64,000 nt of DNA, taken from the NCBI GenBank assembly GCA_902761365.1, contig CACWJZ010000006.1, forward strand, positions 24,371-88,370, in the 5' to 3' direction. Made by a program: the position numbers and the translations under genes. The stretch comes from an uncultured Eubacteriales bacterium (GTDB taxonomy: Bacteria; Bacillota; Clostridia; Christensenellales; CAG-138). The notes under the pieces were generated by a model that saw only the letters and a list, made by a program, of their open reading frames with translations, did not search any database and had not been told where the DNA came from. Below, piece after piece: positions 14,188 through 54,735 of the stretch (its first letter is position 1; the number at the start of each line of letters is the position of its first letter).

Positions 14188-14285
14188 TGGGCGATGGGAT
14201 TTGAAGCTCAGCTAAAAAAGGCCACAGTGTGGCCCTTTTGCTGGGCACGGGCCGCAAATCCCGTCGCCCTGACACCTCGTTGTGA
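14188..14285 (+). repeat. tRNA-3'-end-bracketed module, Pro locus unit 1 (type 1 core)
   Basis: The antisense arm TGGGCGATGGGATTTGAAGC is the complement of TTCAAATCCCaTCGCCC. The core is AAAAAAGGCCACagtGTGGCCCTTTT. The sense arm is GGGCCGCAAATCCCGTCGCCCTGACACC, followed by TCGTTGTGA. Confidence 0.8.
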
Positions 14286-14290
14286 TAAAT

Positions 14291-14373
14291 GATTTTGAGA
14301 AGCTTCCAGAGCCGCGCCCCGACCAAGCCCGCAGGCGCGAATCAAATCCCGTCGCCCCGGCACCTCGTTGTGA
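14291..14373 (+). repeat. tRNA-3'-end-bracketed module, Pro locus unit 2 (truncated type 2 core)
   Basis: The antisense arm GATTTTGAGAAGCT is degenerate. The core CCAGAGCCGCGCCCCGACCAAGCCCGCAGGCGCGAAT is related to 29823-29918. The sense arm TCAAATCCCGTCGCCCC is 17/17 identical to tRNA-Pro, and the same TCGTTGTGA follows. Confidence 0.75.
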
Positions 14374-14379
14374 CCGTAG

Positions 14380-14407
14380 AAAAAGCCATCCCCTCGGATG
14401 GCTTTTT
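14380..14407. terminator. Bidirectional terminator (serves rarA on the minus strand)
   Basis: A-run, GCCATCCcctcGGATGGC, then T-run. Confidence 0.75.
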
Positions 14408-14419
14408 CAAACGCTGTCC

Positions 14420-15736
14420 TCAGTGCTCCTTCTTCCATTCCTTGATCTCTTCAAGCCGCTTCTTGTACTTGGCCTCGAGCCCCTGCTCCGTGGGACGGAA
14501 GTACTCCCGCCCCAGAAGGGAATCGGGAAGACACTGCATGCTGGTGAGCTTGGCCTCGTAGTCATGGGCGTATTGATACCCCTTCCCATAGCCCAGGTCC
14601 TTCATGAGCCCCGTGGGCGCGTTGCGGATGTTCAGGGGGACGGGCTCGTCAAGCTGCTTTAGCGCGTCCTGCTTCGCCTCCATATACGCCACGTCCATGG
14701 CGTTGGACTTGGGGGCCATGGACATGTACACCACAGCCTCCGTGAGGTGCACGCTGCACTCCGGCATGCCGATGAAATGGCAGGCCTGATAGGCGGCTAC
14801 GGCGATCTCGATGGCGTGAGGATCGGCCAGGCCCACATCCTCGCTGGCAAAGCGGGTCACCCGCCGGGCGATGTACAGGGGGTCCTCGCCGGCCTCCAGC
14901 ATCCGCGCCAGCCAATAGACCGCTGCGTCCGGGTCAGAGTTGCGCATGGACTTATGCAGGGCGGAGATCAGGTTGTAGTGCTCCTCGCCGTTCTTGTCGT
15001 ACAGTAGGGACTTCTTGGAGATACATTGCTCCAAAGTTTCCATGGTGACGGTGATGCTGCCGGTCTCGTCCATGTCCCCGTTCAGGACCACCATCTCCAA
15101 TGTGGAGAGGGCGTTGCGGGCGTCGCCGTTGGAGAAGACGGCGATCATGTTCAGCATCTCGTCGGTGATGGTCACCTGATCCTTGCCGAACCCCCGAGGG
15201 TCATTGACGGCTCGGCGCAGGAGGCCCACCAGTTCCTCCGTCTTCAGCGCCTGCAGGACGAACACCTTGCAGCGGGAGAGAAGGGCGTCGTTGATCTCGA
15301 AGGAGGGGTTTTCCGTGGTGGCGCCGATCAGGATGATGCTGCCCTTCTCCACAAAGGGCAGAAAGGCATCCTGCTGGGCCTTGTTGAAGCGGTGGATCTC
15401 GTCCACGAACAGGATGGTCCGTTCCCCGAAGCGGCGGTTTTCCTCCGCCTGCTGCATGACGGTGCGGATCTCCCGGATGCCGCTGGTCACGGCGGAGAAA
15501 TCGATGAAGGCGGACTGGGTCCGATTGGCGATGATCCGGGCCAGGGTGGTCTTGCCCACGCCCGGCGGCCCCCAGAAGATCATGGAGGAGACCTGGTCGC
15601 TTTCGATGAGCCGACGCAGGACCTTGCCAGGTCCCAAGAGATGGGTCTGGCCCACGAATTCATCCAGGGTCTGGGGGCGAAGACGGGCCGCCAGAGGCTG
15701 CGGGACCTCCTTCGCGAAGAGGGAAAACTGTTCCAT
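14420..15736 (-). CDS. rarA: Replication-associated recombination protein A (RarA/MgsA), AAA+ ATPase
   Basis: LRPQTLDEFVGQTHLLGPGKVLRRLIE, Walker A (GPPGVGKTTLARIIA), Walker B (ILFVDEIHRFNK) and the C-terminal MgsA domain (YDKNGEEHYNLISALHKSMRNSD). Confidence 0.95.
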   Translation of the reverse strand: MEQFSLFAKEVPQPLAARLRPQTLDEFVGQTHLLGPGKVLRRLIESDQVSSMIFWGPPGVGKTTLARIIANRTQSAFIDFSAVTSGIREIRTVMQQAEENRRFGERTILFVDEIHRFNKAQQDAFLPFVEKGSIILIGATTENPSFEINDALLSRCKVFVLQALKTEELVGLLRRAVNDPRGFGKDQVTITDEMLNMIAVFSNGDARNALSTLEMVVLNGDMDETGSITVTMETLEQCISKKSLLYDKNGEEHYNLISALHKSMRNSDPDAAVYWLARMLEAGEDPLYIARRVTRFASEDVGLADPHAIEIAVAAYQACHFIGMPECSVHLTEAVVYMSMAPKSNAMDVAYMEAKQDALKQLDEPVPLNIRNAPTGLMKDLGYGKGYQYAHDYEAKLTSMQCLPDSLLGREYFRPTEQGLEAKYKKRLEEIKEWKKEH

Positions 15737-15815
15737 AGACTACCTCCCACGGGAAGTATACCACAAAAAAGAGGGCCGGGGAAGCCCCGACCCACAAACT
15801 TGAGCCAAAGAAAGG

Positions 15816-16085
15816 TTATTTCACGGCATCCTTCAGCGCCTTACTGGCCTTGAAGAAGGGCACGTTGGCGGCGGAAATGGTCACCATCTCACCGGTGCGG
15901 GGGTTCTTACCTTCTCGGGCCAGACGATGCTTGCAACCAAAGGTGCCAAAGCCGGACAAGGAGACCGTGTCCTCCTTGATCGTGTCGGTGATCGTTTCTA
16001 AAGCAGCGGCGACGGCTGCGGCGGCTTCCTTCTTGGACAGTCCGGTCTTCTCAGCGATCACCTTGATGAATTCAGTTTTATTCAT
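15816..16085 (-). CDS. hup: Nucleoid-associated DNA-binding protein HU
   Basis: 89 aa: MNKTEFIKVIAEKTGLSKKEAAAAV..GFGTF..R.AREGKNPRTGE. Confidence 0.95.
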   Translation of the reverse strand: MNKTEFIKVIAEKTGLSKKEAAAAVAAALETITDTIKEDTVSLSGFGTFGCKHRLAREGKNPRTGEMVTISAANVPFFKASKALKDAVK

Positions 16086-16111
16086 GGAAAAACTCCTTTC
16101 AAGTTTGGCTC

Positions 16112-16140
16112 ATTATATCATCTTAGTTTGCGCTTGTCTA
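16112..16140 (-). promoter_or_regulatory. Sigma-A-type promoter of hup
   Basis: On the minus strand: TAGACA, a 17-nt spacer, then TATAAT. It is followed by a leader carrying the AAAGGAG RBS. Confidence 0.6.
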
Positions 16141-16224
16141 TACATAAAAATGCCTATTTTTCTATAAAATTCTGACTTTTTTGTGTCATTTTGGCGAGAA
16201 TGAGCCATATAATTTTTTATATCG

Positions 16225-16242
16225 CCAAAAGAAGTTTAAGAA
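16225..16242. repeat. Isolated partial copy of the terminal 18-mer of the mnmE-flanking element
   Basis: CCAAAAGAAGTTTAAGAA matches CCAAAAGAACTTTAAGAA (2483-2500) at 17/18 positions. It is preceded by the inverted repeat TTTTGGCGA..TCGCCAAAA. Confidence 0.5.
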
Positions 16243-16319
16243 TAGCGATGTCTAACCGCTTCCGACCGTAGACAAGTGGCAGGTGGGACTGGCAACAAGA
16301 AGAGGGTGGTCGATAGGCT

Positions 16320-17285
16320 TTATATGATTTTGGCGTCCAAACGAAGGATGGTCTGCAGCTCCTCCTGGGTCGGGCCGCTTCTGCCGCCGAAGTGGGACAC
16401 GCACCAGGCGCCGGCGGCGCAGGCGCGGCGGTTGGCTTCCTCAGGGGAATACCCCGACAGCAAAGATGACAGGAACGCCCCGTCATACACGTCTCCGGCG
16501 CCGACCCGGTCCCGGATGGGCACGGAGAAGGCGGGGAAGGCGTAGACCTCCTGACGGGTATACACCGTCGCCCCCTTTTCGCCCCGGCGGGCGACCACCA
16601 TGGGCACCATCTCCAGGAGCTTTCGCGCGGCCCGGTCCGGGTCCGTCTCGTCCGCCAGGGGGCACAGCTCGTCCTCCGCGGAGCCGAAAAGCAGGTCACA
16701 GCAGCAAAGAGCCGCCTGCATATTCTCCGCAAAGGTCCTGTCTTGCAGGGATTCCAGCCGCGCGTTCACGTCCAGGGCCACGGGGATCCCGGCCTCATGG
16801 CAGCGGCGCATCAAAGAGAGCTGGTTGGCGGCAGCGGGGTCCTCCCGCAGGGTCATGCCGGAGGAATGCATCCAGGAGATGCGGGAAAGGATGTCGTCGG
16901 GGATCTGATCCGCGCTTACGTCGTGCTGGCTCGCCCTGACCCGGGGATAGGCGAAGGGGACCCGCTCCCCCTGTTCGTCCAGCACCAGCAGGACCATGGT
17001 GGTCATGGCAGACGCCTTCAGGGTGAGTAGGGAAGCGTCCACGCCCTCCTGGGTCAATCCTGCCTTCAGGGCCCGGCCAAAGGCGTCCTGCCCGGTGGTG
17101 CCCAGAAACAGGGCGGGGGTGCCCAGCCGGGCCAGGGTCACGGCGGTGTTGGCCACGCTCCCGCCGTGGGAAAAGCGGACGGTTAGGGCGTCGGGGTCCA
17201 CATCCTTCTGCCGGGACGCCAGGGCTTGTCCGTAGGGGATGAGCAGATCCGCGCAGATGTCTCCATAGCAAAGAACAGGCAGCAT
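16320..17285 (-). CDS. PfkB-family carbohydrate kinase (ribokinase-like), substrate unknown
   Basis: N-terminal GDICADLL, then GGSVANTAVTLARLG, and a C-terminal GAGD anion-hole motif (RVGAGDVYDGAF). Confidence 0.8.
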   Translation of the reverse strand: MLPVLCYGDICADLLIPYGQALASRQKDVDPDALTVRFSHGGSVANTAVTLARLGTPALFLGTTGQDAFGRALKAGLTQEGVDASLLTLKASAMTTMVLLVLDEQGERVPFAYPRVRASQHDVSADQIPDDILSRISWMHSSGMTLREDPAAANQLSLMRRCHEAGIPVALDVNARLESLQDRTFAENMQAALCCCDLLFGSAEDELCPLADETDPDRAARKLLEMVPMVVARRGEKGATVYTRQEVYAFPAFSVPIRDRVGAGDVYDGAFLSSLLSGYSPEEANRRACAAGAWCVSHFGGRSGPTQEELQTILRLDAKII

Positions 17286-17297
17286 ACAGGGTTCCTT

Positions 17298-18455
17298 TCA
17301 GCGTCTGTCGATGGTGATGACCGGGTTGAAGGTTTCGTCGATGGCGGTGATCTCGGCCACAGCCCGGGCTTTCAACTTCCCATCGGACAGCTGTATGTCG
17401 TAAGGGGCGGAGATGTCGAACACCAGGTTGGTGTGGGTCTGCCCCCGGACCAGCCGAAAATCGTGGATCGTGATCCGCTCGTCGATCCTCAGCAACGCCG
17501 TCTTCACCTGTTCCTTCGCCGCGTCGGTCTCCGGGTTATTCACGGCGATGGGGTCCATGTGGATGGTGGAGAGGCAGTTGTATTTCTCGTTCAACTCCCA
17601 CTCGATGTTGTCGATCATATCGTGGGTGGACAGCATGTCGGCGTCCTCGTCCACCTCCGCATGGAGGGTGATCATCTTCCGGCCGGGACCGTAGTCATGG
17701 ACGATCAAATCGTGGACGCCCATGACCCCCTCATGGTCCATGACCGTGTCCGCGATGGACTTGAGCAGCTCCGGATCAGGTTTCTGACCCAACAGCAGGT
17801 CCACCGTGTCCTTCGCTGTGCCATACCCACCCCAGAGGATCAGCAGTGAGACGGCCAGGGAACACCAGGGATCGGCGTTGAGGCCCCAGAAGTGGTTGAG
17901 CGCCATGGACAGCAGCACGGCGCCGGAGGTGATGCAGTCGAAGAGACTGTCCTTGGCGGTGGCCAGCATGGCGGAGGAGGCGTACTTTTTGCCGTACCGC
18001 GTGTTGTAGAGAGCCATATACAGCTTTACGGCGATGGAGCAGAGGAGCACCGCGAAGGCGGCGACGGTGAACACGGGCGCAGGCGCATGGGAGATCAGGC
18101 TCTCCACGGAGCTTTTGATCAGCTCCACACCCATGAGCAGGATCAGGAAAGCGATGATAAGGGCGGACAGGTATTCGGCCCGGCCGTGGCCGAAGGGGTG
18201 CTCCTTGTCCGGCTTTTTATGGGAGAGGACGAAGCCGCCCAGGGAGACCAGGGAAGAGCCCACGTCCCCCAGGTTGTTGAAGCCGTCGGCCTGGATGGCC
18301 AAAGAGCCGATCAAAGCGCCCAAAATGATTTTGAAACAGCTCAGTATCAGATTGAGGAAGATGCCCACGGCCCCGCAGATCATGCCGTAACCGTGGCGAA
18401 CGGCTTCCTCGTCCTGTGTATCACGCAAAAAAAGCCTGGACAGCAAAGCGATCAT
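17298..18455 (-). CDS. Cation diffusion facilitator (CDF) family metal efflux transporter
   Basis: Start at MIALLSRLF, after AAGGAGAAAG. Six TM segments carry D/H-containing helices, followed by a C-terminal cytoplasmic domain (MGVHDLIVHDYGPGRKMITLHAEV). Confidence 0.85.
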   Translation of the reverse strand: MIALLSRLFLRDTQDEEAVRHGYGMICGAVGIFLNLILSCFKIILGALIGSLAIQADGFNNLGDVGSSLVSLGGFVLSHKKPDKEHPFGHGRAEYLSALIIAFLILLMGVELIKSSVESLISHAPAPVFTVAAFAVLLCSIAVKLYMALYNTRYGKKYASSAMLATAKDSLFDCITSGAVLLSMALNHFWGLNADPWCSLAVSLLILWGGYGTAKDTVDLLLGQKPDPELLKSIADTVMDHEGVMGVHDLIVHDYGPGRKMITLHAEVDEDADMLSTHDMIDNIEWELNEKYNCLSTIHMDPIAVNNPETDAAKEQVKTALLRIDERITIHDFRLVRGQTHTNLVFDISAPYDIQLSDGKLKARAVAEITAIDETFNPVITIDRR

Positions 18456-18592
18456 GCGGCTTTCTCCTTCTCGTTGGATTATTTCTAAAGTATACCACGG
18501 CGGTGAAGAATATGCAATCAAGGAAAGCACTTGCAATTTAGTCGGGAATAGGGCATAATAAAGATGAGAAAGAAGAAAGAAGGAGGTCAGTT

Positions 18593-19081
18593 ATGCTTAC
18601 AGCCCTCGGAAATTTGGCGGTGCCGTGTATCCTCTGTTTCCTGTTCGGCATCCTGATGTTCGTCGTGGAAATGTTTACGCCTGGTTTCGGTGTGGCCGGA
18701 GGTCTCGGCATCGCTGCCTTCGCGGCCATCATCGTGATGCAGTTTTTGGCCAACTCCGTGACGGCGGCCCTGATCGTCACGGCGGTGCTGGTGCTGCTGC
18801 TGGCGATCATCATCGTCCTGTTTATCCGCTCCTTCCAGAAGGGGACTTTGTCCCGGTCCAAGATCGTGAATACCACCGCGGTGGAGGGGGAATCCTCCCC
18901 GGTGGCCAAGGAGAAGGACCTGGTGGGCAAGACCGGCACGGCAATCACGGCCCTGCGCCCCGCAGGCATCGCAGAGATCGACGGCGTGCGCATGAACGTC
19001 TCCACTTACGGCAACTTCATCGAGCCCGGCAAGCCCGTGGTCGTGGCGGCGGTGGAAGGCCTGAACGTATTCGTGAAATGA
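18593..19081 (+). CDS. nfeD: NfeD-family membrane protein (short form, no protease domain)
   Basis: Three TM segments, then a C-terminal OB-fold NfeD motif (VGKTGTAITALRPAGIAEIDGVRMNVSTYGNFIEPGKPVVV). Confidence 0.85.
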   Translation: MLTALGNLAVPCILCFLFGILMFVVEMFTPGFGVAGGLGIAAFAAIIVMQFLANSVTAALIVTAVLVLLLAIIIVLFIRSFQKGTLSRSKIVNTTAVEGESSPVAKEKDLVGKTGTAITALRPAGIAEIDGVRMNVSTYGNFIEPGKPVVVAAVEGLNVFVK

Positions 19082-19281
19082 AGTACTGCAAGAAATGCGG
19101 CATCCTATACGCCACCGACGTATGCCCCAAATGCGGCATAGAGGAGCCGAAGGACCAGCCGGAACCGGAACCCGCCGACAAAAAGACGCTGACGCGTCAA
19201 TGGATCGGTTTGCTCGTGGGCATACCGCTGTTCATCATGGCCATCTATGTGGTCATCTATATGCTCTACGCCCGCGGTTGA
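19078..19281 (+). CDS. Tail-anchored zinc-ribbon protein (67 aa)
   Basis: ATG overlaps the nfeD stop (ATGA). The product is MKYCKKCGILYATDVCPKCG, then a Pro/Glu linker, then a C-terminal TM segment (WIGLLVGIPLFIMAIYVVIYMLY). Confidence 0.6.
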   Translation: MKYCKKCGILYATDVCPKCGIEEPKDQPEPEPADKKTLTRQWIGLLVGIPLFIMAIYVVIYMLYARG

Positions 19282-19314
19282 TACAAGTATACTAAACAGG
19301 AGGAAAACAACTAC

Positions 19315-20289: not shown

Positions 20290-20310
20290 ATCGGAGAGTG
20301 AGGACTTACC

Positions 20311-22257: not shown

Positions 22258-22260
22258 CGT

Positions 22261-23363: not shown

Positions 23364-23366
23364 TCA

Positions 23367-23396
23367 TTGACAAACCGGGGAGATAGATTGTACAAT
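23367..23396 (+). promoter_or_regulatory. Sigma-A-type promoter of tRNA-Leu
   Basis: TTGACA (23367-23372), an 18-nt spacer, then TACAAT (23391-23396). It lies 12 nt upstream of the tRNA 5' end. Confidence 0.6.
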
Positions 23397-23408
23397 ACTC
23401 CCCGTAGC

Positions 23409-23491
23409 GCGGCTGTGGTGGAACGGCATACACAACAGACTTAAAATCTGTCGGCGAAAGCTTATGGGTTCAAATCCCATCAGCCGCACCA
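23409..23491 (+). tRNA. tRNA-Leu (anticodon TAA), class II
   Basis: Acceptor GCGGCTG/CAGCCGC, anticodon arm ACAGA-CTTAAAA-TCTGT, long variable arm, T arm ATGGG-TTCAAAT-CCCAT. CCA is encoded. Confidence 0.9.
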
Positions 23492-23753
23492 AAGCACAAG
23501 GCCACCCATAGCGGTGGCCTTTTACTTTGGAATAGGAATGGAAGGGATTTGAAACCGCGTTAAGAAAAAGCCCCAGTGGGGCTTTTTTAGCGGCAAGGGC
23601 CGCAAATCCCATCAGCCGCACCAAAGCACAAGACCACCCATAGCGGTGGCCTTTTACTGTGGAATAGGAATGGAAGGGATTTGAAGCCGCGTTAAGAAAA
23701 AGCCCCAGTGGGGCTTTTTTAGCGGCAAGGGCCGCAAATCCCATCAGCCGCAC
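23471..23753 (+). repeat. 132-bp tandem repeat (2.1 copies) containing two tRNA-3'-end-bracketed modules (type 1 core), Leu locus
   Basis: CAAATCCCATCAGCCGCAC starts at 23471 (inside the tRNA), 23603 and 23735. Copies 1 and 2 differ at 3 of 132 positions. Each copy holds a terminator hairpin, the antisense arm GGAAGGGATTTGAA, the core AAAAAGCCCCagtGGGGCTTTTTT and the sense arm GGGCCGCAAATCCCATCAGCCGCACCA. Confidence 0.9.
23501..23524 (+). terminator. Intrinsic terminator of tRNA-Leu (repeated again at 23633-23656)
   Basis: GGCCACCcatagcGGTGGCC followed by TTTT. Confidence 0.8.
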
Positions 23754-23839
23754 TTTCTTTCCATAGTTGAGCATAAAACCCCCATCAATCGCACAAAAAA
23801 GGCCACCCGCCCCGGATGGCCTTATATCGATGTAGTCGC

Positions 23840-26714: not shown

Positions 26715-26718
26715 TAGC

Positions 26719-29651: not shown

Positions 29652-29728
29652 GGGGATGTAGCTCAGCTGGTTAGAGCGCTGTGTTCACATCGCAGAGGTC
29701 TAGGGTTCGAGTCCCTACATCCCCACCA
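29652..29728 (+). tRNA. tRNA-Val (anticodon CAC)
   Basis: Acceptor GGGGATG/CATCCCC, anticodon arm CTGTG-TTCACAT-CGCAG, T arm TAGGG-TTCGAGT-CCCTA. CCA is encoded. Confidence 0.9.
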
Positions 29729-29735
29729 AAGAAAA

Positions 29736-29760
29736 AGCCACCCAGTCGGGTGGCTATTTC
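29736..29760 (+). terminator. Intrinsic terminator of tRNA-Val
   Basis: AGCCACCCagtcGGGTGGCT followed by ATTTC. Confidence 0.7.
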
Positions 29761-29772: not shown

Positions 29773-29934
29773 TGGAAGGGACTCGAACGGATGTGGTGGT
29801 GAATGAAGCCCCAGCGGGGCTTCAGAGCCTGCCCATGGGCTTCGCTCGGCCTCACTGAAAAAGCTCCACCGGAGCTTTTTCCTGGCGCTCGGCCCCTAAC
29901 CAAGCCGGCAGGCACGAATTCGAGTCTTTACACC
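29773..29934 (+). repeat. tRNA-3'-end-bracketed module, Val locus (type 2 core, full length)
   Basis: The antisense arm TGGAAGGGACTCGAAC is the complement of GTTCGAGTCCCT, 12/12 against tRNA-Val. The core carries the hairpins GAAGCCCCagcGGGGCTTC and AAAAAGCTCCaccGGAGCTTTTT. The sense arm is TTCGAGTCTTTACACC. Confidence 0.75.
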
Positions 29935-30368
29935 GTTAATTCATTTGCTGCCACAATAGTATCTGTCTCTTCACACCTTATCGGTATGAACACTATCGTC
30001 AACAGACTCAGCAGCAGGCAAACCCCGCCCGCCAGCCAATACACCGCGGTGAGGCGGCTGGTGGTGCCGTAAATCTCCAGGGCGCCGGAGAAGAGGCTGC
30101 CCACCGTCAGAGCCGAGATGCCGAAGTGCCACAGCTGTACGGCCGTGTCGGATGGGAGCGCGCGGCCGTGTCGCGTCAGGAGCAGGGTCGGCAGGACCCC
30201 ACCCAGCAGGGGGATGGCGAAGGCGTACACCATGCCGAAGGCGTAGACCCCGTGGCTGAAGGCCTCATAGACGGCGCCGAAAACGACGCAGAGGATGGTG
30301 ATGAGCAGATACCGGAACGCCAGGCGCACGCGGGCGTCCTTCGGGAATTCAACAGGCGATGCAGACAA
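29928..30368 (-). CDS. Small four-TM membrane protein, last gene of the VTC/DUF4956 operon
   Basis: 146 aa and hydrophobic (LLITILCVVFGAVYEAF, AFAIPLLGGVLPTLLL..). Its start overlaps the end of the upstream gene by 20 nt. Confidence 0.6.
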   Translation of the reverse strand: MSASPVEFPKDARVRLAFRYLLITILCVVFGAVYEAFSHGVYAFGMVYAFAIPLLGGVLPTLLLTRHGRALPSDTAVQLWHFGISALTVGSLFSGALEIYGTTSRLTAVYWLAGGVCLLLSLLTIVFIPIRCEETDTIVAANELTV

Positions 30369-43616: not shown

Positions 43617-43636
43617 GGGAGATGTTTATGCAAAAA

Positions 43637-43663: not shown

Positions 43664-43678
43664 TCGTTTGCCTGCGCT

Positions 43679-44674: not shown

Positions 44675-44676
44675 CG

Positions 44677-47302: not shown

Positions 47303-47480
47303 GGCATGACATCCTTTCCATCAAGCAAGTTGAATGTAATATTATGCTCAATTTTACAATATTTTACCATACCGAATCCCTGTTGTAAATTAAAAATCTT
47401 GGGCCGTCTCAAACTTTTTTTGACACGATAGAAACAAAAAAACAGGCTGCATGACTGCAGCCTGTCCAGGGCAAAGGGAA

Positions 47481-48668: not shown

Positions 48669-48973
48669 TTAGTTTCTTCCTCCTATATTTTCTTTATTGT
48701 GAGACCGCATGCGGCCAAACAATCCATCGTACAGGGCGTGTCCCTTGGCGGCGTCGCCAAAAATAAACCCCAACATAAAAGTACGATAGTATTCTACCAG
48801 AAAAAACAGGATTTGTACAGCCATGATTTTCGTGTTTCTGAAAAAAAGCCAGGCTCGGGACAGGGAACAACGAGACGGTTTCAGACTTTTTGGGGGCTCG
48901 CATGCAAAAAAATACTTTGAAAAAAGGAGACGCATACAGTATACTGGTGTCATCAAGAACAGGGAGGATGACT

Positions 48974-50158: not shown

Positions 50159-50173
50159 GGACATTCTGTTTCA

Positions 50174-50201
50174 AAAGGAGGCGCTTGGTGGCGCCTCCTT
50201 T
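50174..50201. terminator. Bidirectional terminator hairpin after adh
   Basis: AAAGGAGGCGCttggtgGCGCCTCCTTT. A near-identical stem recurs at 50424-50450. Confidence 0.7.
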
Positions 50202-50423
50202 GCTTGTCAAAAACCTTTTGACAAGCTGATCAGTCTGTCAGAAAAGGTTGGCAGAGCCGTTTTCTCCGACCCGAAGCTGTACTATGTACTGTGAGAGGGA
50301 GGAAAAACGGCTAATTTGCGGCATTTTTCAAAAGAAATGGTGCCTTCCAGCACCATTTCTACCTACCAGTAGTATTCCAATTATTATACGCCGCAAATGA
50401 TCTGCCGCCTTTTTCGAAAGACT

Positions 50424-50450
50424 GAGGAGGCGCTTGGCGGCGCCTCCTTC
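50424..50450. repeat. Second copy of the GGAGGCGCTTGGnGGCGCCTCCTT hairpin
   Basis: GAGGAGGCGCttggcgGCGCCTCCTTC, 4 nt from the ABC-F stop codon. It has no adjacent T-run. Confidence 0.6.
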
Positions 50451-50453
50451 ATG

Positions 50454-51986
50454 TTACCTGTATATCCGCTGCAGCCCGCTTTCCGTCAGGGAGTAGAGGA
50501 CGGGCGTGACCTCCTGAATGAACTTTCGATCATGGGACACGGCCAGGATGCAGCCGGGGAACTCGCTGAGGAGCTTGCGCACAGCGGGGCAGGAGAGGGG
50601 GCTGAAGTTGCGGGTAGGCTCGTCCAGCAGCAACACGTTGCTTTTATCCAGGATCGCCTTGAGCAGCAGGAGCTTGGCCCGCTGGCCCCCGGAGAGGTCG
50701 CTGACCGGGTGGCTCATCTCATCGGTGGTGTATTTCATGCTCCCCAAATAGATCCGAGCCTTGGTGACGCTCTCCTTGTCCCCGTCGGGGGCCAGGAACT
50801 CCTCGGGTCGCATGCGGTAGCTCACGCCCTCCCCGTAGCGCTGGGGCATGTAGGTGCAGCGGATGTCCTTGCGAGCGAGCAGCTCCCGGGCGATCCGGTC
50901 CATGAGGGTGCTCTTGCCGCAACCGTTGGGCCCCAGGATGCACACCTTCTCCGGGCCGATGATCTTGAGCCGCACGTCCCGGGACAACAGCCGCTCGCCT
51001 ATGTGCAATTCCTCCAGGACATAGTCCAAAACCACCTTGCCGCGGCTCAGTTCAATGCCCGGTTCCCACTTGGGCAGGATGGCCCATTCCGCCTCGGGGA
51101 GCTGGGTCAAATCTTCCTCCTCCTTGTCCAGGCGCCGGCCCATGGATTTCACCGCGTGCATCTTCTTTTTCAACAACCGGCCACCGGAGGGGTTGCCCCG
51201 GCTGATGCTGTCCTGGGCGTGCTCCACGGCGTTGTAGATGGAGAGATACCGATTCTTCTTCTTCCGAAAGTCGGCCTGCTCGAACCGGGCCACCTGCTCC
51301 TGGTGGGCGAACTGCCGAGCCCGCTGGTCCATATAGGCCCGATACCCCTCCCGGGACACGGTGGAGCGGCAGATGGTCTTTCTTCGCACCTGCTCCAGGT
51401 GGATGATGATGTCCGCCGTCTCCTCCAAAAGGACCTCGTCATGGGAGATATAGAGCACGGCCCCGGGGAAGGCGTTCATGAATTCGGACAGCCATTCCAG
51501 GGTCTCGATATCGAGATCGTTGGAGGGCTCATCCAGCAACAGGATGTCGCACCGGCTCAGCAGGAGTCCTGCCAGCTGGACCTTCACCCGCTCCCCGCCG
51601 GAGAGGGTCTCCAGGGGCCGCGCTTCCTCGAAGAGGTCGGGGGAGAGGCCCAGGCGCTGGGCGGTCTCATTGATCTCCCGCGGGGACAGGGCATAGAACC
51701 TGCAGGCGCCCTCCATATAGACGCAGACGGGCAGGCTCTTCTCCTCGGGGGGCAGCTCCTGCGGGAGGTAGCCCATCCTGCCGTCCACGATCCGCTGGCC
51801 GTGGACTTCGGCGTAAGTTTCCACCATTTTCGGGTCATATATCCATTTGAGCAGGGTGGACTTGCCGTTGCCCTCCTCACCGATGAGGGCGGCCCGCTCG
51901 CCCTTGTGCAGGGTGAAAGAGAGGTCGTCCGCCAGCAGACGGTCGTCCTTCCTGGAGCGTATGGTCACATTTCTGATTTGCAGCAT
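50454..51986 (-). CDS. ABC-F family ATPase (two ABC domains and a linker, no TM); possible ribosome-protection (ARE) type
   Basis: ATG lies 5 nt after GGAGG. Walker A GEEGNGKSTL and GPNGCGKSTL, signatures LSGGERVKV and LSGGQRAKL, and a roughly 130-aa basic interdomain linker. Confidence 0.8.
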   Translation of the reverse strand: MLQIRNVTIRSRKDDRLLADDLSFTLHKGERAALIGEEGNGKSTLLKWIYDPKMVETYAEVHGQRIVDGRMGYLPQELPPEEKSLPVCVYMEGACRFYALSPREINETAQRLGLSPDLFEEARPLETLSGGERVKVQLAGLLLSRCDILLLDEPSNDLDIETLEWLSEFMNAFPGAVLYISHDEVLLEETADIIIHLEQVRRKTICRSTVSREGYRAYMDQRARQFAHQEQVARFEQADFRKKKNRYLSIYNAVEHAQDSISRGNPSGGRLLKKKMHAVKSMGRRLDKEEEDLTQLPEAEWAILPKWEPGIELSRGKVVLDYVLEELHIGERLLSRDVRLKIIGPEKVCILGPNGCGKSTLMDRIARELLARKDIRCTYMPQRYGEGVSYRMRPEEFLAPDGDKESVTKARIYLGSMKYTTDEMSHPVSDLSGGQRAKLLLLKAILDKSNVLLLDEPTRNFSPLSCPAVRKLLSEFPGCILAVSHDRKFIQEVTPVLYSLTESGLQRIYR

Positions 51987-52009
51987 ATCTGCCTCCAATT
52001 TCCGCGCTC

Positions 52010-52049
52010 AGAAAAGCACGTCCGGCAGAATAGAAAAAGCCTGCGGTCG
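52010..52049 (-). promoter_or_regulatory. Terminator-like hairpin in the ABC-F leader (candidate attenuator)
   Basis: Minus strand: CGACCGCAGgctttttctattCTGCCGGACG, imperfect at about 8 of 10 pairs. It is followed by TGCTTTTCT and ends about 25 nt before the RBS. Confidence 0.4.
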
Positions 52050-52165
52050 TGATCCTTTGAGCGCACATACACTTCGACACCTTCGTGCCGATGGGGATGA
52101 TGTTGCGTTCAAAATCGATCAGTTGCGCATGCCTTCGTTGAAGTGCTCCTTATGTTGATGGAAAC

Positions 52166-52194
52166 AGTATATCGGCAGTCTGCAAAAAAGTCAA
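52166..52194 (-). promoter_or_regulatory. Sigma-A-type promoter of the ABC-F gene
   Basis: Minus strand: TTGACT, a 17-nt spacer, then TATACT. This gives a leader of roughly 170 nt. Confidence 0.6.
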
Positions 52195-52195
52195 T

Positions 52196-52232
52196 GAAAA
52201 ATGCAGGAGACAGATGACATTGCCTCCTGCAT
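52196..52232 (-). terminator. Intrinsic terminator of the AraC-family gene
   Basis: Minus strand: ATGCAGGAGgcaatgtcatctgtCTCCTGCAT followed by TTTTT. Confidence 0.8.
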
Positions 52233-52241
52233 GGGATGGGT

Positions 52242-53147
52242 TCAGTCTTTCTTGGTTATGGGGAGCCAGATTTCACAGTAGTGGGAATTGTTGACCACCT
52301 CGTTCCCATCCTCGAAGGGCCAGTGGATCACGCCGATCTCCGGCGCCTCCCGCAGCATGTAGCCTGAGGAGGGCAGCCATTGGGTGACGGCCTGCCGACG
52401 AAGATCGTCCACCAGATTGATGGGGAACTTGCAGCGCTCGGTCTCGCATACGAGATAGGTGCCGGCGGGGATGGAGAGGTGTTCGAACCGTTTGGCGAAC
52501 TCGCCCAAACACTGTTCAAAATCCTTCAGCGCCCATTGGGGCAGCTGGTAGGCGATATAGAAGTCGTAGCCCTCCGGCGTAAAGTCGGTCATGACCGTGT
52601 AAATGATCTCATGCTCCCGGCTCATCCCTTCCAGTACATACTGCTCCACCCGGGTCTCGCAGGCGAAGCAATGATCCTGATCCTGTTTGTCACAGGGGTC
52701 GCCGGTGAAGCGGCGCTTGAAGCCGGTCAGGAGCATTTCCGGCTTTTCTTCAATGCGATAGTTCATAATGTTGCCTCCTTCCAAAGTGACTTTGATGAAC
52801 AGGGGGGAGAAGGACTTGAGCTTTGCTCCGCTTTTGCGCGCCTCGGACGGGGTGATGCCGTGAAACTTCTGAAAGGCTTTGGCGAAGCTGTCGGGGCTGT
52901 CGTAGCCATACCGAAGGGCGATGTCGATCACCTTCTCCTTCCCGGCGGCCAGCTTCGCCCCGGCGATGGACAGGCGACGGTTCCGAATGTACTCGCCCAG
53001 GGTGTACCCGCACAGGATGCTGAAGATGCGCTGGAAATGGAAGGGGGAGGACAGGCTCTCCCTGGCGATGCGATCATAGTCGAGATCGTCCTCCATGTGG
53101 GTTTCGATGTAGTCCAGCGCGCGCTGTATGCCCGTGATCCAGTCCAT
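52242..53147 (-). CDS. AraC-family transcriptional regulator with a C-terminal GyrI-like effector-binding domain
   Basis: Start after AGGAGGGAAAATC. The HTH regions read SPFHFQRIFSILCGYTLGEYIRNRRL and GYDSPDSFAKAFQKFHGITPSEAR. The GyrI-like C-terminus ends ..EIWLPI. Confidence 0.85.
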   Translation of the reverse strand: MDWITGIQRALDYIETHMEDDLDYDRIARESLSSPFHFQRIFSILCGYTLGEYIRNRRLSIAGAKLAAGKEKVIDIALRYGYDSPDSFAKAFQKFHGITPSEARKSGAKLKSFSPLFIKVTLEGGNIMNYRIEEKPEMLLTGFKRRFTGDPCDKQDQDHCFACETRVEQYVLEGMSREHEIIYTVMTDFTPEGYDFYIAYQLPQWALKDFEQCLGEFAKRFEHLSIPAGTYLVCETERCKFPINLVDDLRRQAVTQWLPSSGYMLREAPEIGVIHWPFEDGNEVVNNSHYCEIWLPITKKD

Positions 53148-53293
53148 GATTTTCCCTCCTGTCAAGGACATCATAGCAGAGTCCGCGTCAGGATGCCCGA
53201 CTTTTTGTGCGGTCATCTATCAATACTGTATGGGTCAAGCGGGAAGGAGCGGGATAAAAGGGCTTACATGCGGAAGTAAGGCAATGGTGGGCA

Positions 53294-54334
53294 TCAGTTC
53301 ACCTTCTGAAGCTTACAGGAGTATTGCCGTGATCCGCCACTGGTATAGGAAAAAGTAATGGCGATTCCCATTTGTCCGTCCTTTACCCCGTAGGTCGCGG
53401 AAATACTGCTGAGCCCGACGACGTTCGCAGGGATTTCGATGGAAAGGTGCGTTCCCGACACGGCGAAACGGCAACGGAACGAGAGCTGTTGACCGTTCTG
53501 GGAAATCCTCATGACGCCTGAGTAGTTTGAGTCTATATCGATGACCATGTCATATTTCGCTCCGGTACCCTTCTCCGTCGAGGTGCCTTTCCACCGTCCG
53601 GCCAACGACAGTTCATCGGAGGCATCGCCGGAGGTCTCAACGGTGACGCTTTCATACACGGACGTTCCCAGATCCAGCCACAGGGCGGGACGCACGGCAA
53701 AGTTGCCGATGGCAAATGACATACTGCTTTCCAGCGCGCCGTAATGATTGACGAATGCGGCCTTGAACTCGGTCCATCCCGGGGAGCGAAGCCACCAGTA
53801 GGAGGACGCACGTTTCGTGCTGGCATACGGGGTAGAAGTAAGGCGGGCGGCCATGTTGTACTCGTTCAGCTTTATGACGCCGAAATACTGCTTTGCCTCT
53901 GCGGCGCTCAATAGGAACAGTTTGTCCTGGGTATCGTTTCCTCCGGGGGTGGTCCACTTTTCATAGCCCTGACTGTCGCTGTTATCCACCTGAGTCATAA
54001 GGATGGCTTCGGCCTCCTCCTGGGTGAAGGCGGCATTGAGAAAGGTATCATTGAGCCAGGTGCGCAGGGTGCAGGTCTCCCAGGTCACAGCGCTGTTATT
54101 ATCATCATTGTATGGCACGGCATCCAGCCCATATTTGCTGAGCAGCAATGCTTTGCCGTCTTGCGTGTCCAGCACGATCCATTCGATGGGCTCCGGCCCG
54201 TTGCCAAGATCGTTGTCCTGCTCGTAACGGCCGAAGACGATCACATCGTCCCTTTTGACCTCCTCCGCGGATGCATAGCTAAAGAGCAAAAGGACGAAAA
54301 GAAAGGCCAGCACGATCGAGACTGTCTTTTTCAT
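53294..54334 (-). CDS. Secreted DUF6273-like protein
   Basis: Start at MKKTVSIVLAFLFVLLLFSYASA, after GGGAGGA. VIVFGRYEQDN...PIEWIVLD...KALLLSKY..TWETCTLRTWLN..WWLRSPG. The longer ORF in the track runs into non-coding repeat sequence. Confidence 0.65.
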   Translation of the reverse strand: MKKTVSIVLAFLFVLLLFSYASAEEVKRDDVIVFGRYEQDNDLGNGPEPIEWIVLDTQDGKALLLSKYGLDAVPYNDDNNSAVTWETCTLRTWLNDTFLNAAFTQEEAEAILMTQVDNSDSQGYEKWTTPGGNDTQDKLFLLSAAEAKQYFGVIKLNEYNMAARLTSTPYASTKRASSYWWLRSPGWTEFKAAFVNHYGALESSMSFAIGNFAVRPALWLDLGTSVYESVTVETSGDASDELSLAGRWKGTSTEKGTGAKYDMVIDIDSNYSGVMRISQNGQQLSFRCRFAVSGTHLSIEIPANVVGLSSISATYGVKDGQMGIAITFSYTSGGSRQYSCKLQKVN

Positions 54335-54497
54335 TCGGGCATCCTCCCATGACACGATATGTTCCATATATACAGTATAATATCCCTCTCTTTCCATGAC
54401 AAGCCTTTTTCCACGGATACGTACTGGAACTGCGTATGGGCCGGGCGCTATCCTGCCTGTGCCGCTATACGGCCTCCAGATATTTGAGCGCAAAGCA

Positions 54498-54601
54498 GGG
54501 TGGGATTCGACCCGCCGTGCGCGGCGGGCCATGGGCTCGGCTCTGAGGCTCCGCAGGAGCCTCATTCACTACGGAGCCCGTTCGAATCTCCACCGTCTCC
54601 A
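54498..54601 (-). repeat. tRNA-3'-end-bracketed module, Ser locus unit 2 (type 2 core)
   Basis: Read on the minus strand (tRNA sense), the antisense arm is TGGAGACGGTGGAGATTCGAAC. The core is GTGAATGA-GAGGCTCCtgcGGAGCCTC-AGAGCCGAGCCCATGG. The sense arm is GGGTCGAATCCCACCC. Confidence 0.75.
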
Positions 54602-54647
54602 AAAGGCCAACCGCAGGAATGGAAAGCACGGCACCCAATTGCTTTCG

Positions 54648-54735
54648 GGTGAGCCGGGGTGGGATTCTGCCCATGCCGCTGAAAACGCCGCATTGCGACG
54701 TTTTCTTAACGCGGCTTTGAATCCCTCCGTCTCCA
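54648..54735 (-). repeat. tRNA-3'-end-bracketed module, Ser locus unit 1 (type 1 core)
   Basis: Read on the minus strand, the antisense arm is TGGAGACGGAGGGATTCAAAGCC. The core is GCGTTAAGAAAACGTCGCaatGCGGCGTTTTCAGCGGCATGGGC. The sense arm is AGAATCCCACCCCGGCTCACC. Confidence 0.75.

Follow-up and report, generated by a model that had tools for sequence, protein, structure and literature searches.

Short structured units behind tRNA genes and rpsI of gut and rumen Clostridia as possible integrative cassettes

A family of short structured cassettes is widespread in gut and rumen Clostridia, where they occur behind tRNA genes and rpsI in the form of optional cargo, a terminator, an antisense copy of the target 3' end, a structured core and a sense copy of the target 3' end. 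They may best be explained as small integrative cassettes with little cargo, directed to tRNA gene and rpsI 3' ends and mobilised in trans, to which we give somewhat less than an even chance. Among three options put forward by the first-pass annotation of this DNA, that of a non-autonomous element or recombination product which targets or copies the T arm and acceptor is the best supported, with the same cores found behind at least twelve kinds of tRNA and rpsI and arms fitting each target, with order, copy number and cargo varying among related genomes, and with one cassette present twice in one genome, at different loci. The family is undescribed within Rfam 15 and the full-text literature searched, as had been supposed.

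Units behind four of the five tRNA genes in the window

Five tRNA genes could be distinguished with ARAGORN and Rfam in the 64,000-nt window (the whole stretch of DNA analysed), and a total of seven units lie downstream of tRNA-Pro(CGG) (14073-14149, + strand), tRNA-Leu(TAA) (23409-23491, +), tRNA-Val(CAC) (29652-29728, +) and tRNA-Ser(CGA) (54778-54866, -). The recurrent units claimed for these four loci are real and their arms lie at the positions given for them, but not all tRNA loci are involved, as tRNA-Thr (13959-14034; ARAGORN, Rfam) carries no unit. At each of the four loci the tRNA gene is followed by a terminator, an antisense copy that covers the T arm and some of the acceptor, a shared core, and a sense copy that extends from the T loop in the direction of CCA. 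The left arm, initially described as TGG plus the complement of the acceptor and T loop, is indeed an antisense copy, but consists chiefly of the T stem and T loop with an acceptor portion of variable length, and the leading TGG is usually acceptor complement rather than the complement of CCA. Even at E<=10, the units are called neither as tRNAs nor as members of other Rfam families (ARAGORN, Rfam), in agreement with the initial reading, and the intact units fold into closed structures with z-scores of -3.1 to -5.4. The sharing of cores between loci exceeds chance, with four matches for the CCGCGTTAAGAAAA core (0.16 expected) and two for the CCAAGCCNGCAGGCNCGAAT core (0.11 expected). No integrase or transposase is encoded among all annotated ORFs of the window, as claimed previously, and the frames at ~58-64 kb have no Pfam match.

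Directly 3' of tRNA-Pro, a terminator hairpin with 17-nt, 100% complementary arms (14149-14186, +) forms the centre of a long palindrome comprising the tRNA 3' end and the antisense arm of unit 1. This arm, GGGCGATGGGATTTGAA (14189-14205, +), is 94% complementary to tRNA positions 14127-14143, with 93-94% complementarity to the tRNA and both sense copies. The unit 1 core (14202-14250, +) is a divergent hp1 hairpin, the type 1 core (37 bits, E = 2e-6; z = -5.4), with an outer helix of CTCAGC/GCTGGG in place of GCCGC/GCGGC, and precedes the first sense arm copy (14255-14285, +), which comprises CAAATCCCGTCGCCC and a 13-nt extension common to copy 2. Unit 2 (14306-14342, +) is the right half, CCAGAGCC...CCAAGCCCGCAGGCGCGAAT, of a 5'-truncated type 2b core, which is intact in a relative at locus L106; it has no antisense arm and folds no better than shuffles (z = -0.55). 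It is followed by the second sense arm copy (14343-14373, +) and a distal terminator (14380-14405). The copied segment is the 3' part of the tRNA, from the T loop to CCA.

The tRNA-Leu gene, with its own terminator at 23498-23521, is associated with a tandem array (23471-23753, +) of 2.1 copies of a 132-nt repeat (98% identity), which incorporates a sense arm with CCA, a terminator, an antisense arm and hp1, and carries a 19-21-nt copy of the tRNA end. The hp1 of unit 1 (23550-23599, +; 65.7 bits) is accompanied by an antisense arm at 23541-23556 and a sense arm at 23603-23623, and that of unit 2 (23682-23731, +; 70.5 bits) by arms at 23673-23688 and 23735-23753, respectively. A fourth copy of the tRNA-Leu 3' end, decayed (23776-23826, +; 74% identical) and with its own terminator, can be read as an old displaced 3' end. 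Alleles of this locus in other assemblies contain one copy versus two next to an identical neighbouring protein, although assembly collapse of the 132-nt repeat could also cause this difference.

Behind tRNA-Val and its bidirectional terminator (29736-29755) lies a type 2 long-form unit (29773-29936, +). It includes the antisense arm AGGGACTCGAAC (29777-29788, +; 100% complementary to the tRNA), a k-turn-like arm with hairpin (29799-29838, +), a reversed partial hp1-like hairpin (29856-29881), a CCAAGCCGGCAGGCACGAAT component (29900-29919, +) and the sense arm TTCGAGTCTTTACA (29919-29932, +). Near-identical relatives occur behind tRNA-Val at L104 and L117, and type 2 long forms are also found at L119, behind tRNA-Leu(CAG), and at L106.

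The terminator palindrome of tRNA-Ser (54739-54781) has 17-nt perfect inner arms, followed by acceptor complement. Type 1 unit 1 (54655-54737, -) consists of an antisense arm (about 54716-54734, -), hp1 (54670-54719, -; 61.7 bits) and the sense arm GAATCCCACC (about 54658-54667, -; sense copy 54658-54672), and has orthologous copies in five other species. The Ser antisense arm measures 25 nt and is 84% complementary, and the sense arms lack the acceptor part. Unit 2 (54493-54603, -; z = -5.3) is a type 2 short form with the structure of a three-way junction, of which the closing stem is formed by its two arms (sense copy at 54499-54513), together with a P-a/P-b arm with the internal loop UAGUGAAU/AGAG and a P-c hairpin. 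Among syntenic tRNA-Ser(CGA) loci, the order of types 1 and 2 at L037 is the reverse of that in the window and at L011, and only type 1 is present at L056, L075 and L080. Copy number and unit order both differ among related genomes.

Linkage to tRNA genes and structure of the cores

About 80 species-level genomes from gut and rumen Clostridia contain the hp1 core, and carriers of the units include Ruminococcus flavefaciens YL228 and MA2007. Among 95 copies at 85 loci, 40 have a same-strand tRNA gene within 450 nt upstream, against 1.7 expected (p about 1e-43), usually at a distance of 60-75 nt, and 36/49 tRNAs in these loci, of at least twelve kinds, bear a unit. About seventeen more copies have an antisense T-arm-like left arm, with the tRNA beyond the sequence covered. 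The cores are accordingly enriched next to tRNA genes, but are not always downstream of one, as rpsI and intergenic sites are also occupied. Where hp1 lies within 400 nt of a tRNA, 40/42 copies are downstream on the same strand. A type 2 pattern search of metagenomes yielded eighteen matches, with real units at fourteen loci; ARAGORN calls an upstream same-strand tRNA at nine of these, all co-directional, the tRNA is cut by the contig start at two, and three have no tRNA in the sequence covered.

The arms fit the local tRNA much more closely than they fit other tRNAs. The sense arms score 14.1 against their own tRNA and 6.2 against other tRNAs, and the antisense arms 9.3 and 5.3, respectively (p about 1e-20 for each). 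Sense copies start at C56/N57 of the T loop and end at CCA or a few bases past it. The antisense arm at L022 spans TGG to the variable region.

Covariation is strong in both core types and is present in every internal helix, showing that the structure of the cores is under selection. The hp1 core is 87.9% paired, with 118 double-change cells versus 34 in shuffles, and the apical hairpin comprises an A-tract, a GC stem and a T-tract. The type 2 core, which forms a three-way junction containing a k-turn-like internal loop, is 96.5% paired, and both sides have changed at eleven pairs; the two compensatory changes between the Val and Ser hairpins had been identified correctly from the outset. The orthologous Ser units trace a helix path from GCCGC/GCGGC through GCCAC/GCGGC to GCCAC/GTGGC. 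Single-stranded loops and junctions (UAGUGAAU/AGAG, AUGG and GUUAAG) are conserved. The type 2 loop appears to fit the k-turn consensus, with a putative C-stem, 3-nt bulge AGU and tandem G.A and A.G pairs, a motif which its complementary strand could not form. Of the earlier division into two core types, the sharing beyond chance stands, but types 1 and 2 are modules found in combination and in alternation (L076, L120) rather than two fixed elements, with the order type 2, type 1, type 2 at L120 and a reversed partial hp1 within the Val unit. Distal units retain the antisense arm, core and T-stem part of the sense arm, with decay of the acceptor, CCA and left terminator half (Ser spacer, Leu fourth copy).

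The units could alternatively be structured RNA genes or 3'-trailer domains transcribed in the direction of the tRNA, which we regard as unlikely. The closing stem would copy the T-stem/acceptor helix, with type 2 adding a k-turn arm and hairpin, and the product might mimic the tRNA 3' half, acting for instance as a decoy of enzymes or toxins which recognise the acceptor/T-arm helix, or its antisense arm might pair with the tRNA 3' half, for example in controlling read-through precursors. Covarying helices, conserved loops and junctions, a k-turn fit on one strand only, the fixed orientation to the tRNA (40/42 hp1 copies and 9/9 type 2 units with a called tRNA), the retention of arms and core in distal units as other parts decay, and the persistence of orthologous units in at least six species are consistent with such RNAs, and the covariation and k-turn-like loop favour this option of the first-pass annotation. 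It is at odds with the absence of a sigma-70-like promoter in or before the units on either strand and with the strong terminator between each tRNA and its units, while hp1 itself resembles a terminator ahead of the sense arm. Furthermore, the hp1 mismatches are not biased towards G.U over A.C (4 versus 5), giving no strand bias, and the core at rpsI is antisense to the gene. Mimicry of the tRNA is incomplete, because the antisense arms often cover little or no acceptor, and an RNA function alone would leave the direct repeats, cargo and shuffling unaccounted for.

Other targets, cargo and alternative origins

An hp1 plus hp2 core occurs at the 3' end of rpsI, for which the S9 identity was confirmed, in at least six genomes. 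A repeat comprising the terminal 19 nt of rpsI and the terminator flanks these cores, which are oriented antisense to the target gene. Cargo is found between units at two loci, namely a gene for a DUF4379 protein (L076) and genes for an HTH regulator and a beta-lactamase-like protein (L058). In RUG14781 a single Leu-armed cassette is present both behind tRNA-Leu (L073) and at L018, where it follows an unrelated repeated sequence ending in ACCA, with identity between the two starting at ACCA.

Several further arrangements were observed. Other att-like repeats occur near the L018 cassette, a displaced tRNA-Leu 3' half, from the anticodon loop on, lies beside the units at L048, and L027 contains arrays in which acceptor end and terminator are repeated with no core. 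Copies of e-type hp1 plus hp2 are found in ordinary intergenic regions and on one phage contig.

No integrase, transposase or other recurrent neighbour gene was found among the clustered ORFs of the 85 loci and the annotated ORFs of the window, and no integrase-bearing element with these cores is present in the 85 and 18 loci. Since the element has only one match among viral contigs, and BLAST of the Leu unit against phage and plasmid collections returned nothing, there is no known vehicle. No circular or empty-site form of the cassette was seen.

It is improbable, in our estimation, that there is no dedicated element and that strong terminator hairpins of very highly expressed genes grow outward through fold-back copying (intrastrand template switching) of the adjoining gene end, giving alternating copies A, hairpin, A', hairpin, A. 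The cores would then be common terminator modules, spread by recombination and retained because they terminate bidirectionally. Such copying would account for the near-continuous palindrome of tRNA 3' end, terminator and antisense arm centred on the terminator loop (Ser, Pro and L022), the A-tract and T-tract of the hp1 apical helix with no strand bias, the core-less L027 arrays, and a layout equivalent to an inverted triplication, of the kind that template switching at short inverted repeats is known to produce in yeast (PMC11790251). It does not explain the recurrence of non-palindromic core features (the GTTAAG loop, the CAAGGGCNG linker and the type 2 three-way junction) behind a dozen tRNAs and rpsI in many Clostridia families, the cargo genes between units, or the Leu-armed cassette at a non-Leu locus. 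The terminator or insulator role proposed in the first-pass annotation fits the hp1 apical hairpin but leaves the arms and conserved internal loops unexplained.

Equally improbable is that the units are ordinary scars, the attL/attR remnants of conventional islands or prophages with an integrase that were deleted from tRNA genes and rpsI, rather than a self-contained element. Direct repeats of the target 3' end, accretion in tandem and displaced fragments undergoing decay are the classical hallmarks of such events (PMC4383910; PMC5704250), to which the displaced half at L048 and the att-like repeats at L018 conform. Scars would be expected to decay and to differ from site to site, whereas the size, architecture and loop sequences of the units are conserved in many genomes, with covariation, and the lack of an integrase-bearing carrier at the loci surveyed, the lone viral-contig match and the empty phage and plasmid searches also speak against them.

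Known systems and the proposed cassettes

The closest systems are the CIMEs and accretion arrays of streptococcal ICEs and IMEs and the Islander-type tDNA islands, which occupy the 3' ends of tRNA genes and of ribosomal-protein genes such as rpsI and thus share the same targets (PMC5704250; PMC4383910). As in these, inserted segments are delimited by a direct repeat of the target 3' end, the target gene is restored with the displaced fragment distal, and tandem arrays and remnants without an internal recombinase occur. The units differ in measuring 75-300 nt rather than kilobases, in holding an inverted target copy and conserved, covarying structured cores, in having no known cognate integrase, and in the persistence of orthologous copies across species.

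The distal repeats of E. coli tyrT and their RtT RNA (Rfam RF00391), reportedly described by Egan and Landy in 1978 and by Bosl and Kersten in 1991, are said to comprise 3.14 copies of a 178-bp unit, each of which begins at the 3' end of tRNA-Tyr. The Leu array similarly consists of tandem repeats right behind a tRNA gene, each with a copy of its 3' end. The tyrT repeats are not known to have an inverted arm, a core common to different tRNA loci or rpsI members, and RF00391 has no sequence or structure match to the units, even at E<=10. Mention of rttR is made in a bioRxiv paper (10.1101/2024.07.17.603846).

Integron attC sites and the CTX-phage attP hairpin, recombination sites which work in folded single-stranded form, resemble the units in being imperfect palindromes with inverted short-site ends (...GAAC and GTTC... 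in the units, ...AAC and GTT... in integrons) and a centre variable in sequence yet structured. Integrons also share the cassette-like arrays with occasional genes between sites, and the integrated form of CTX, which reads site, spacer, inverted site, element, site, is likewise similar. The unit ends are copies of the local target rather than a universal core site, do not fit RYYYAAC/GTTRRRY, and no link between the units and intI or Xer was found; most of the cassettes here contain a terminator only, and a single-strand mechanism is a putative analogy. REP/BIME, MITE and PATE-type families are also short, non-coding, hairpin-forming, multi-copy, located behind genes and non-autonomous, and the e-type copies recall them. 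Their terminal inverted repeats differ from those of the units, which are target-derived and different at each locus, and the units show close linkage to tRNA genes and rpsI with a constant orientation, with no link to RAYT, TnpA or another transposase seen.

Several features weigh against integrative cassettes. The unit size is far below that of known integrative elements, and to our knowledge standard tyrosine-integrase att sites have no 15-25-nt inverted copy of the core. The Ser sense arms lack the acceptor part expected of a freshly displaced tRNA fragment, orthologues in at least six species suggest host-level retention rather than recent mobility, and neither an adjoining recombinase gene, a circle or empty site, nor a vehicle accompanies the units.

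Both tRNA gene and rpsI 3' ends are established sites of integrative elements, and accretion beside integrase-less remnants (CIMEs) is documented (PMC5704250; PMC4383910). For the integrative cassettes we infer mobility through site-specific recombination, with the enzyme supplied in trans. Entry or rearrangement would involve recombination within or just after the copied segment, from the T loop to CCA, by a recombinase from elsewhere, as with cis-mobilisable (integrase-less) remnants of integrative elements. Arrays may grow, shrink and be reshuffled through accretion and unequal crossing-over between direct copies, and older 3'-end copies are displaced distally and decay. The target gene is left intact, with the terminator now behind it coming from the cassette, and the hp1 apical hairpin most plausibly also terminates transcription in both directions and thereby insulates the target gene.

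Units behind the tRNA genes of the window

Five tRNA genes could be distinguished in the window using ARAGORN and Rfam, four of them (Thr, Pro, Leu and Val) being encoded by the plus strand and one (Ser) by the minus strand, and a sigma-70-like promoter and a terminator are present for each. At the Pro, Leu, Val and Ser loci the tRNA is followed by a terminator hairpin, an antisense arm comprising the T arm and a variable share of the acceptor 3' strand, a core, and a sense arm which extends from the T loop in the direction of CCA. Each locus has one or two such arrangements, ending with a further terminator. The first-pass annotation had described this antisense copy, core and sense copy of the tRNA 3' end behind these four tRNAs, and is confirmed in this respect, but its reference to all four tRNA loci omits a fifth gene, that for tRNA-Thr, which has no unit behind it. 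The Leu locus contains a 132-nt tandem repeat (2.1 copies, each with CAAATCCCATCAGCCGCAC(CA)), beyond which lies a fourth copy of the tRNA end, decayed and bearing a terminator of its own. Terminators associated with the tRNAs and with the last units are located at positions 14149-14186, 14380-14405, 23498-23521, 23799-23823, 29736-29755 and 54739-54781. Those flanking different tRNAs have a common hairpin consensus, (G)GCCAYCC...GGRTGGC(C), and may belong to the same cassette system as the units.

Core strings are repeated in the window far above chance expectation. The intact units give closed folds (z = -3.1 to -5.4), while none was obtained for the truncated Pro unit 2. Over the 64 kb, the only matches to a covariance model of hp1, the hairpin which forms the type 1 core, were the four units of type 1 and, within the Val unit, a partial copy in reverse. 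Apart from the five tRNAs, nothing in the window reached the Rfam gathering score, and no Rfam family, RtT included, was found over any unit at E<=10. The units could be ruled out as tRNA genes or pseudogenes, as ARAGORN and Rfam RF00005 call only the five true tRNAs, in agreement with the earlier statement that none of them forms a cloverleaf. Weak Rfam matches to tmRNA_permuted and YrlA lie on the true tRNAs and are at chance level. The setting is ordinary chromosome beside jag and mnmE, directly 3' of rpmH-rnpA-yidC. All annotated ORFs are housekeeping genes, none encoding an integrase or transposase, as had been claimed for the window, and a few frames at ~58-64 kb have no Pfam matches. 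A CCA-adding enzyme family gene (4431-5834) is located near the tRNA loci, and genes for a TadA-like deaminase and TruA (54903-56125) occur directly upstream of tRNA-Ser; this proximity of tRNA-related enzyme genes is probably coincidental.

Core structure and distribution of the family

The hp1 hairpin incorporates an outer helix, GCCGC/GCGGC or a variant of it, an asymmetric internal loop which is conserved and in which GTTAAG faces TA or CA, and an apical helix combining four A-T pairs, all invariant, with a covarying GC stem. The apex has the form AAAA(C)-stem-loop-stem-(G)TTTT(T). Such a GC-rich hairpin between an A-tract and a T-tract has the predicted form of a bidirectional intrinsic terminator. 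Pairing in hp1 amounts to 87.9%, with 118 double-change cells versus 34 in shuffles, and the covariation signal is lost when the partners are slid by 1-3 columns. The short form of the type 2 core is a three-way junction, consisting of a closing stem to which both arms contribute, a long arm (P-a/P-b) and a hairpin (P-c), with pairing of 96.5% and 11 pairs altered on both sides. Its internal loop, [P-a]-U-AGU-GA-AU...A-GA-G-[P-a], is invariant in 11 sequences and would fit the k-turn consensus of a helix, a 3-nt bulge and tandem G.A and A.G pairs. Hammerhead and twister ribozymes were rejected on the basis of unsuited junction sequences and the absence of an Rfam match. Orthologous Ser-CGA units at syntenic loci in six species show compensatory changes in the hp1 stem that follow one another step by step. 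The covariation on which the first-pass annotation had made its proposal depend is present in the alignments of both types, and the cores are under selection for structure. The strand of action could not be read from the mismatches, since G.U and A.C show no bias in either hp1 or type 2. As G.T is not favoured over A.C among the hp1 mismatches, a bidirectional terminator or a DNA-level hairpin fits as well as an RNA.

An exact-pattern scan for hp1, using one genome per species, distinguished 85 loci with 95 copies, nearly all in gut or rumen Clostridia (Ruminococcus, Oscillospiraceae, Acutalibacteraceae, Christensenellales and Lachnospiraceae). The enrichment next to tRNA genes anticipated from the window is strong, with 40/95 copies located within 450 nt downstream of a same-strand tRNA versus 1.7 expected (p ~1e-43), usually at a distance of 60-75 nt. 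A further ~17 copies have an antisense, T-arm-like left arm, with the tRNA beyond the 8-kb piece examined at each locus. Units are borne by 36 of the 49 tRNAs in the hp1 loci, and at least twelve kinds of tRNA are represented (Pro, Ser, Leu, Val, Glu, Lys, Asn, Thr, Gly, Arg, Trp and Gln). The type 2 pattern gave 18 matches in metagenomes, with real units at 14 loci, of which 9/14 have a same-strand upstream tRNA called by ARAGORN (Ser-CGA, Ser-GCT, Val-CAC and Leu-CAG). At L110 and L118 tRNA-Ser is cut by the contig start, while L105, L106 and L120 have T-arm-like arms, Gln-like in the case of L106, with no tRNA within the sequence examined. Orientation is likewise constrained, with 40/42 hp1 copies within 400 nt of a tRNA lying downstream on the same strand, and 9/9 type 2 units with a called tRNA being co-directional. 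This fixed core orientation, and the absence of flipped alleles among ~20 same-locus contigs, led to rejection of an invertible segment between inverted arms. Copies of hp1 were also observed in bins labelled as non-Clostridia (L007, L054 and L066 in a Gemmobacter MAG; L026 and L033 in a Bacteroidota MAG), with flanks resembling those of class (f) (GGGGGTGAGC...CGAA), and these could represent horizontal spread or bin contamination.

In Ruminococcus flavefaciens, including strains YL228 and MA2007, and its relatives, hp1 is followed by a covarying second hairpin (hp2) and GAGGAC at the 3' end of rpsI, whose product was confirmed as S9 by Pfam, and the last 19 nt of rpsI recur, together with a terminator, on the far side of the core. 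The hp1 and hp2 combination was also found in plain intergenic regions, and once in a phage contig. The intergenic e-type copies (L050, L061, L063, L045, L083, L060 and L017) have locus-specific 6-7-nt tandem repeats on both sides, for example CGCAAAA and CAACCAG, which suggests that microsatellites serve as insertion sites or are produced by the element. Covariation, conserved loops, the putative k-turn-like motif, fixed orientation and the long persistence of the units are what would be expected of a structured RNA acting as a mimic of, or a pairing partner for, the 3' half of the tRNA. However, a consensus scan revealed no promoter-like site for the units, terminators intervene between the tRNA and the units, the core is antisense at rpsI, and the acceptor is mimicked incompletely.

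Arms, arrays and associated genes

Arms were scored against the last 20 nt of each tRNA, thus excluding most of the T loop common to all tRNAs. Sense arms scored 14.1 against their own tRNA versus 6.2 against other tRNAs, and antisense arms 9.3 versus 5.3 (p ~1e-20 for both), so that the match does not stem from the common T loop alone, a possibility which the first-pass annotation had raised against itself. The sense copy extends from C56/N57, just past G53-T-T-C, to CCA or a few bases further, and the antisense copy from G53/T54 outward over 8 to 30 nt, while the extra domains of longer unit classes are located between hp1 and the sense arm. As CCA is genome-encoded in the unit-bearing genomes, its presence in the copies does not discriminate between the gene and mature tRNA as their source. 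The sense arms of several units (L053, L023 and L027) run a few bases beyond CCA into gene-flanking DNA, which indicates copying at the DNA level and disfavours copying from mature tRNA. A retroviral-type primer-binding site was rejected, since in most units TGG belongs to the acceptor complement and no complement of CCA is present; a full TGG-led antisense arm occurs in L022 only. Similarly, a closed 'dumbbell', in which the arms represent two strands of one replicating stem, is not supported by the Ser units, as the acceptor part is found in their antisense arm and is absent from their sense arm.

The arrays differ in order and count between genomes, which answers the comparison of copy number that had been called for. 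At syntenic tRNA-Ser(CGA) loci, type 1 is followed by type 2 in the window and L011, type 2 by type 1 in L037, and type 1 occurs alone in L056, L075 and L080, while the L120 array consists of type 2, type 1 and type 2. Two or one Leu units are found among assemblies with an identical neighbouring protein, and the one-unit form exists in two sequences; this difference may reflect assembly collapse of the 132-nt repeat. In distal units the acceptor, CCA and left terminator half have decayed, and what is retained is the antisense arm, the core and, from the sense arm, the T-stem portion. Cargo is located between units at two loci, namely a gene for a 702-aa DUF4379 protein between the CCA of unit 1 and the next antisense arm in L076, and an HTH regulator and a beta-lactamase-family protein in L058. 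In RUG14781, one Leu-armed cassette is present at two loci, behind tRNA-Leu (L073) and in L018, where it follows an unrelated repeated sequence and identity with L073 begins at ACCA. This sequence, ending ...TCCGTTATCAACACTCGTACCA, occurs twice in L018:7150-7480 as a direct repeat ~200 nt apart, with the cassette behind the second copy. Enlargement of terminator palindromes by fold-back template switching would explain why the tRNA end, terminator and antisense arm form one nearly continuous palindrome, and the A, A', A layout corresponds to an inverted triplication (cf. PMC11790251), but common non-palindromic cores at a dozen targets, the cargo genes and the transplanted cassette of L018 are left unexplained.

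Several further repeats adjoin units. Behind tRNA-Glu(CTC), L027:2750-3450 contains at least five tandem copies of the acceptor end GGGGTACCA with a terminator, mostly without a core between them and resembling the tyrT-type repeat. A ~110-nt tandem repeat is found 3' of the tRNA-Gly(TCC) unit in L024:3300-3990 (minus strand), and every copy opens with CATCATCCG, which belongs to the 3' end of tRNA-Gly, and continues into a GC hairpin. Class (b) units are adjoined by a second family of repeats, GGGGTCCCCACGAAAA...TTTTGTGGGGTAAAA, which is often paired (L005:1600-2000, L003, L079, L039 and L044). In L048:300-560, a partial tRNA-Leu(TAA) from the anticodon loop onward adjoins two units, and has the appearance of a fragment displaced by a conventional island whose integration site was the anticodon loop.

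Clustering of 2,216 ORFs from the 85 loci yielded only syntenic housekeeping families, with no recurrent neighbour gene, and ten ORFs downstream of units are all ordinary. A gene for a large serine recombinase, with the domains Resolvase, Recombinase and Zn_ribbon_recom, is present at L058:3090-4712, ending 210 nt 5' of the tRNA-Val whose units carry cargo, and is a single case. In L023:3900-5457, the right end of the class (f) unit recurs as an inverted partial copy ~700 nt downstream, and beyond this copy lies the gene for a 459-aa HNH protein which weakly matches a recombinase core-binding domain, again a single case. A recombinase in the neighbourhood of the units was rejected, these two genes being isolated cases. 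One e-type match was found in 2.9 million viral contigs, and the Leu unit had no BLAST match in phage and plasmid collections; a phage or plasmid origin or att region was rejected, the core being essentially absent there. As cassettes start directly after CCA in L018, L036 and L076, an IS200/IS605-type PATE, with insertion 3' of NCCA and subterminal hairpins, was also considered, but no link with TnpA was seen.

Likeness to known systems and interpretation

The distal repeats of E. coli tyrT are arranged in tandem behind a tRNA gene, each starting with a copy of the tRNA 3' end, and the Leu array, with such a copy in each repeat, is alike. The 3' ends of rpsI and tRNA genes are classic docking sites of integrative elements (PMC5704250; PMC4383910), where a regenerated gene and a displaced fragment are the standard signature of integration (PMC4383910), and tandem accretion beside integrase-less remnants (CIMEs) is documented (PMC5704250). 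Like CIMEs and tDNA island scars, the units present a direct repeat of the target 3' end beside a regenerated gene, with T-loop-to-CCA copies behind intact tRNAs and the end of rpsI repeated. CIME/accretion arrays and the tyrT repeats are the closest counterparts by functional analogy. Ordinary island scars would fit these repeats, but not the conserved, covarying architecture.

The units differ from RtT RNA, membership of which is rejected by the covariance model RF00391, unmatched in the window (E<=10) and in 18 loci (gathering threshold). Integron attC sites bear an inverse core RYYYAAC and a core GTTRRRY at the ends of an imperfect palindrome, whereas the units end in ...ATTCGAAC and (GT)TCGAAT..., local T-loop copies off this consensus. 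Neither an integron integrase nor attI was found in the window or the examined loci, and attC membership is likewise rejected. MITEs are characterised by terminal inverted repeats that are conserved across the family and by a target-site duplication of short, fixed length, while the inverted arms of the units vary by locus with the local tRNA and their direct repeats range from 10 to >40 nt, on which basis MITE membership is rejected. The family is rated as att-linked repeats at the 3' ends of tRNA genes, or rather a variant of that kind, and may, with modest probability, constitute a novel system of recombination or of RNA. Full-text searches recovered neither the core sequence nor related descriptions, and within Rfam 15 and the searchable literature the claim of the first-pass annotation that the family was undescribed stands.

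The simplest account, which we favour tentatively and at somewhat less than even confidence, is that the units are integrative cassettes of minimal size, specific to the 3' ends of rpsI and of tRNA genes. A cassette would supply a terminator to the gene ahead, with its own end being a copy of the target 3' end, and hp1 would probably double at its apex as a bidirectional terminator. New cassettes would enter at the gene itself or at an earlier copy of its end, older ones would be displaced distally, and the direct copies would permit gain, loss and reshuffling. Drawn as a circle, the inserted segment has two inverted target-site copies with two hairpin regions between them, a geometry which recalls the hairpins of integron attC and CTX-phage attP and, by analogy, may point to a single-stranded substrate. 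It is conceivable, if rather improbable, that the units are recombination sites of a novel Clostridia cassette platform, with a hairpin stem derived from the target 3' end in both orientations, a conserved structured cap and recombination by an enzyme supplied in trans, as at integron attC sites or the CTX-phage attP hairpin. The corollary that tRNA genes and rpsI serve as integron-like docks, stacking and shuffling terminator-only and gene-bearing cassettes, is similarly doubtful. In a variant of this platform, a core RNA with a k-turn would guide the reaction via the antisense arm.

In metagenome-assembled genomes, the units account for breaks in assembly and for noisy copy numbers behind tRNA genes, and island-finding tools based on displaced tRNA fragments can be confused by them. 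A concrete route to the missing recombinase would be to profile both covariance models phylogenetically against protein families. Should the units instead act as RNAs, they would constitute a new class that is tRNA-linked, structured and k-turn-bearing. If they are integrative cassettes of a self-contained kind, they would rank among the smallest known site-specific elements, would be the first with target-derived inverted arms, and would show how the tRNA-gene and rpsI hot spots of abundant, poorly studied gut and rumen Clostridia are built and remodelled.
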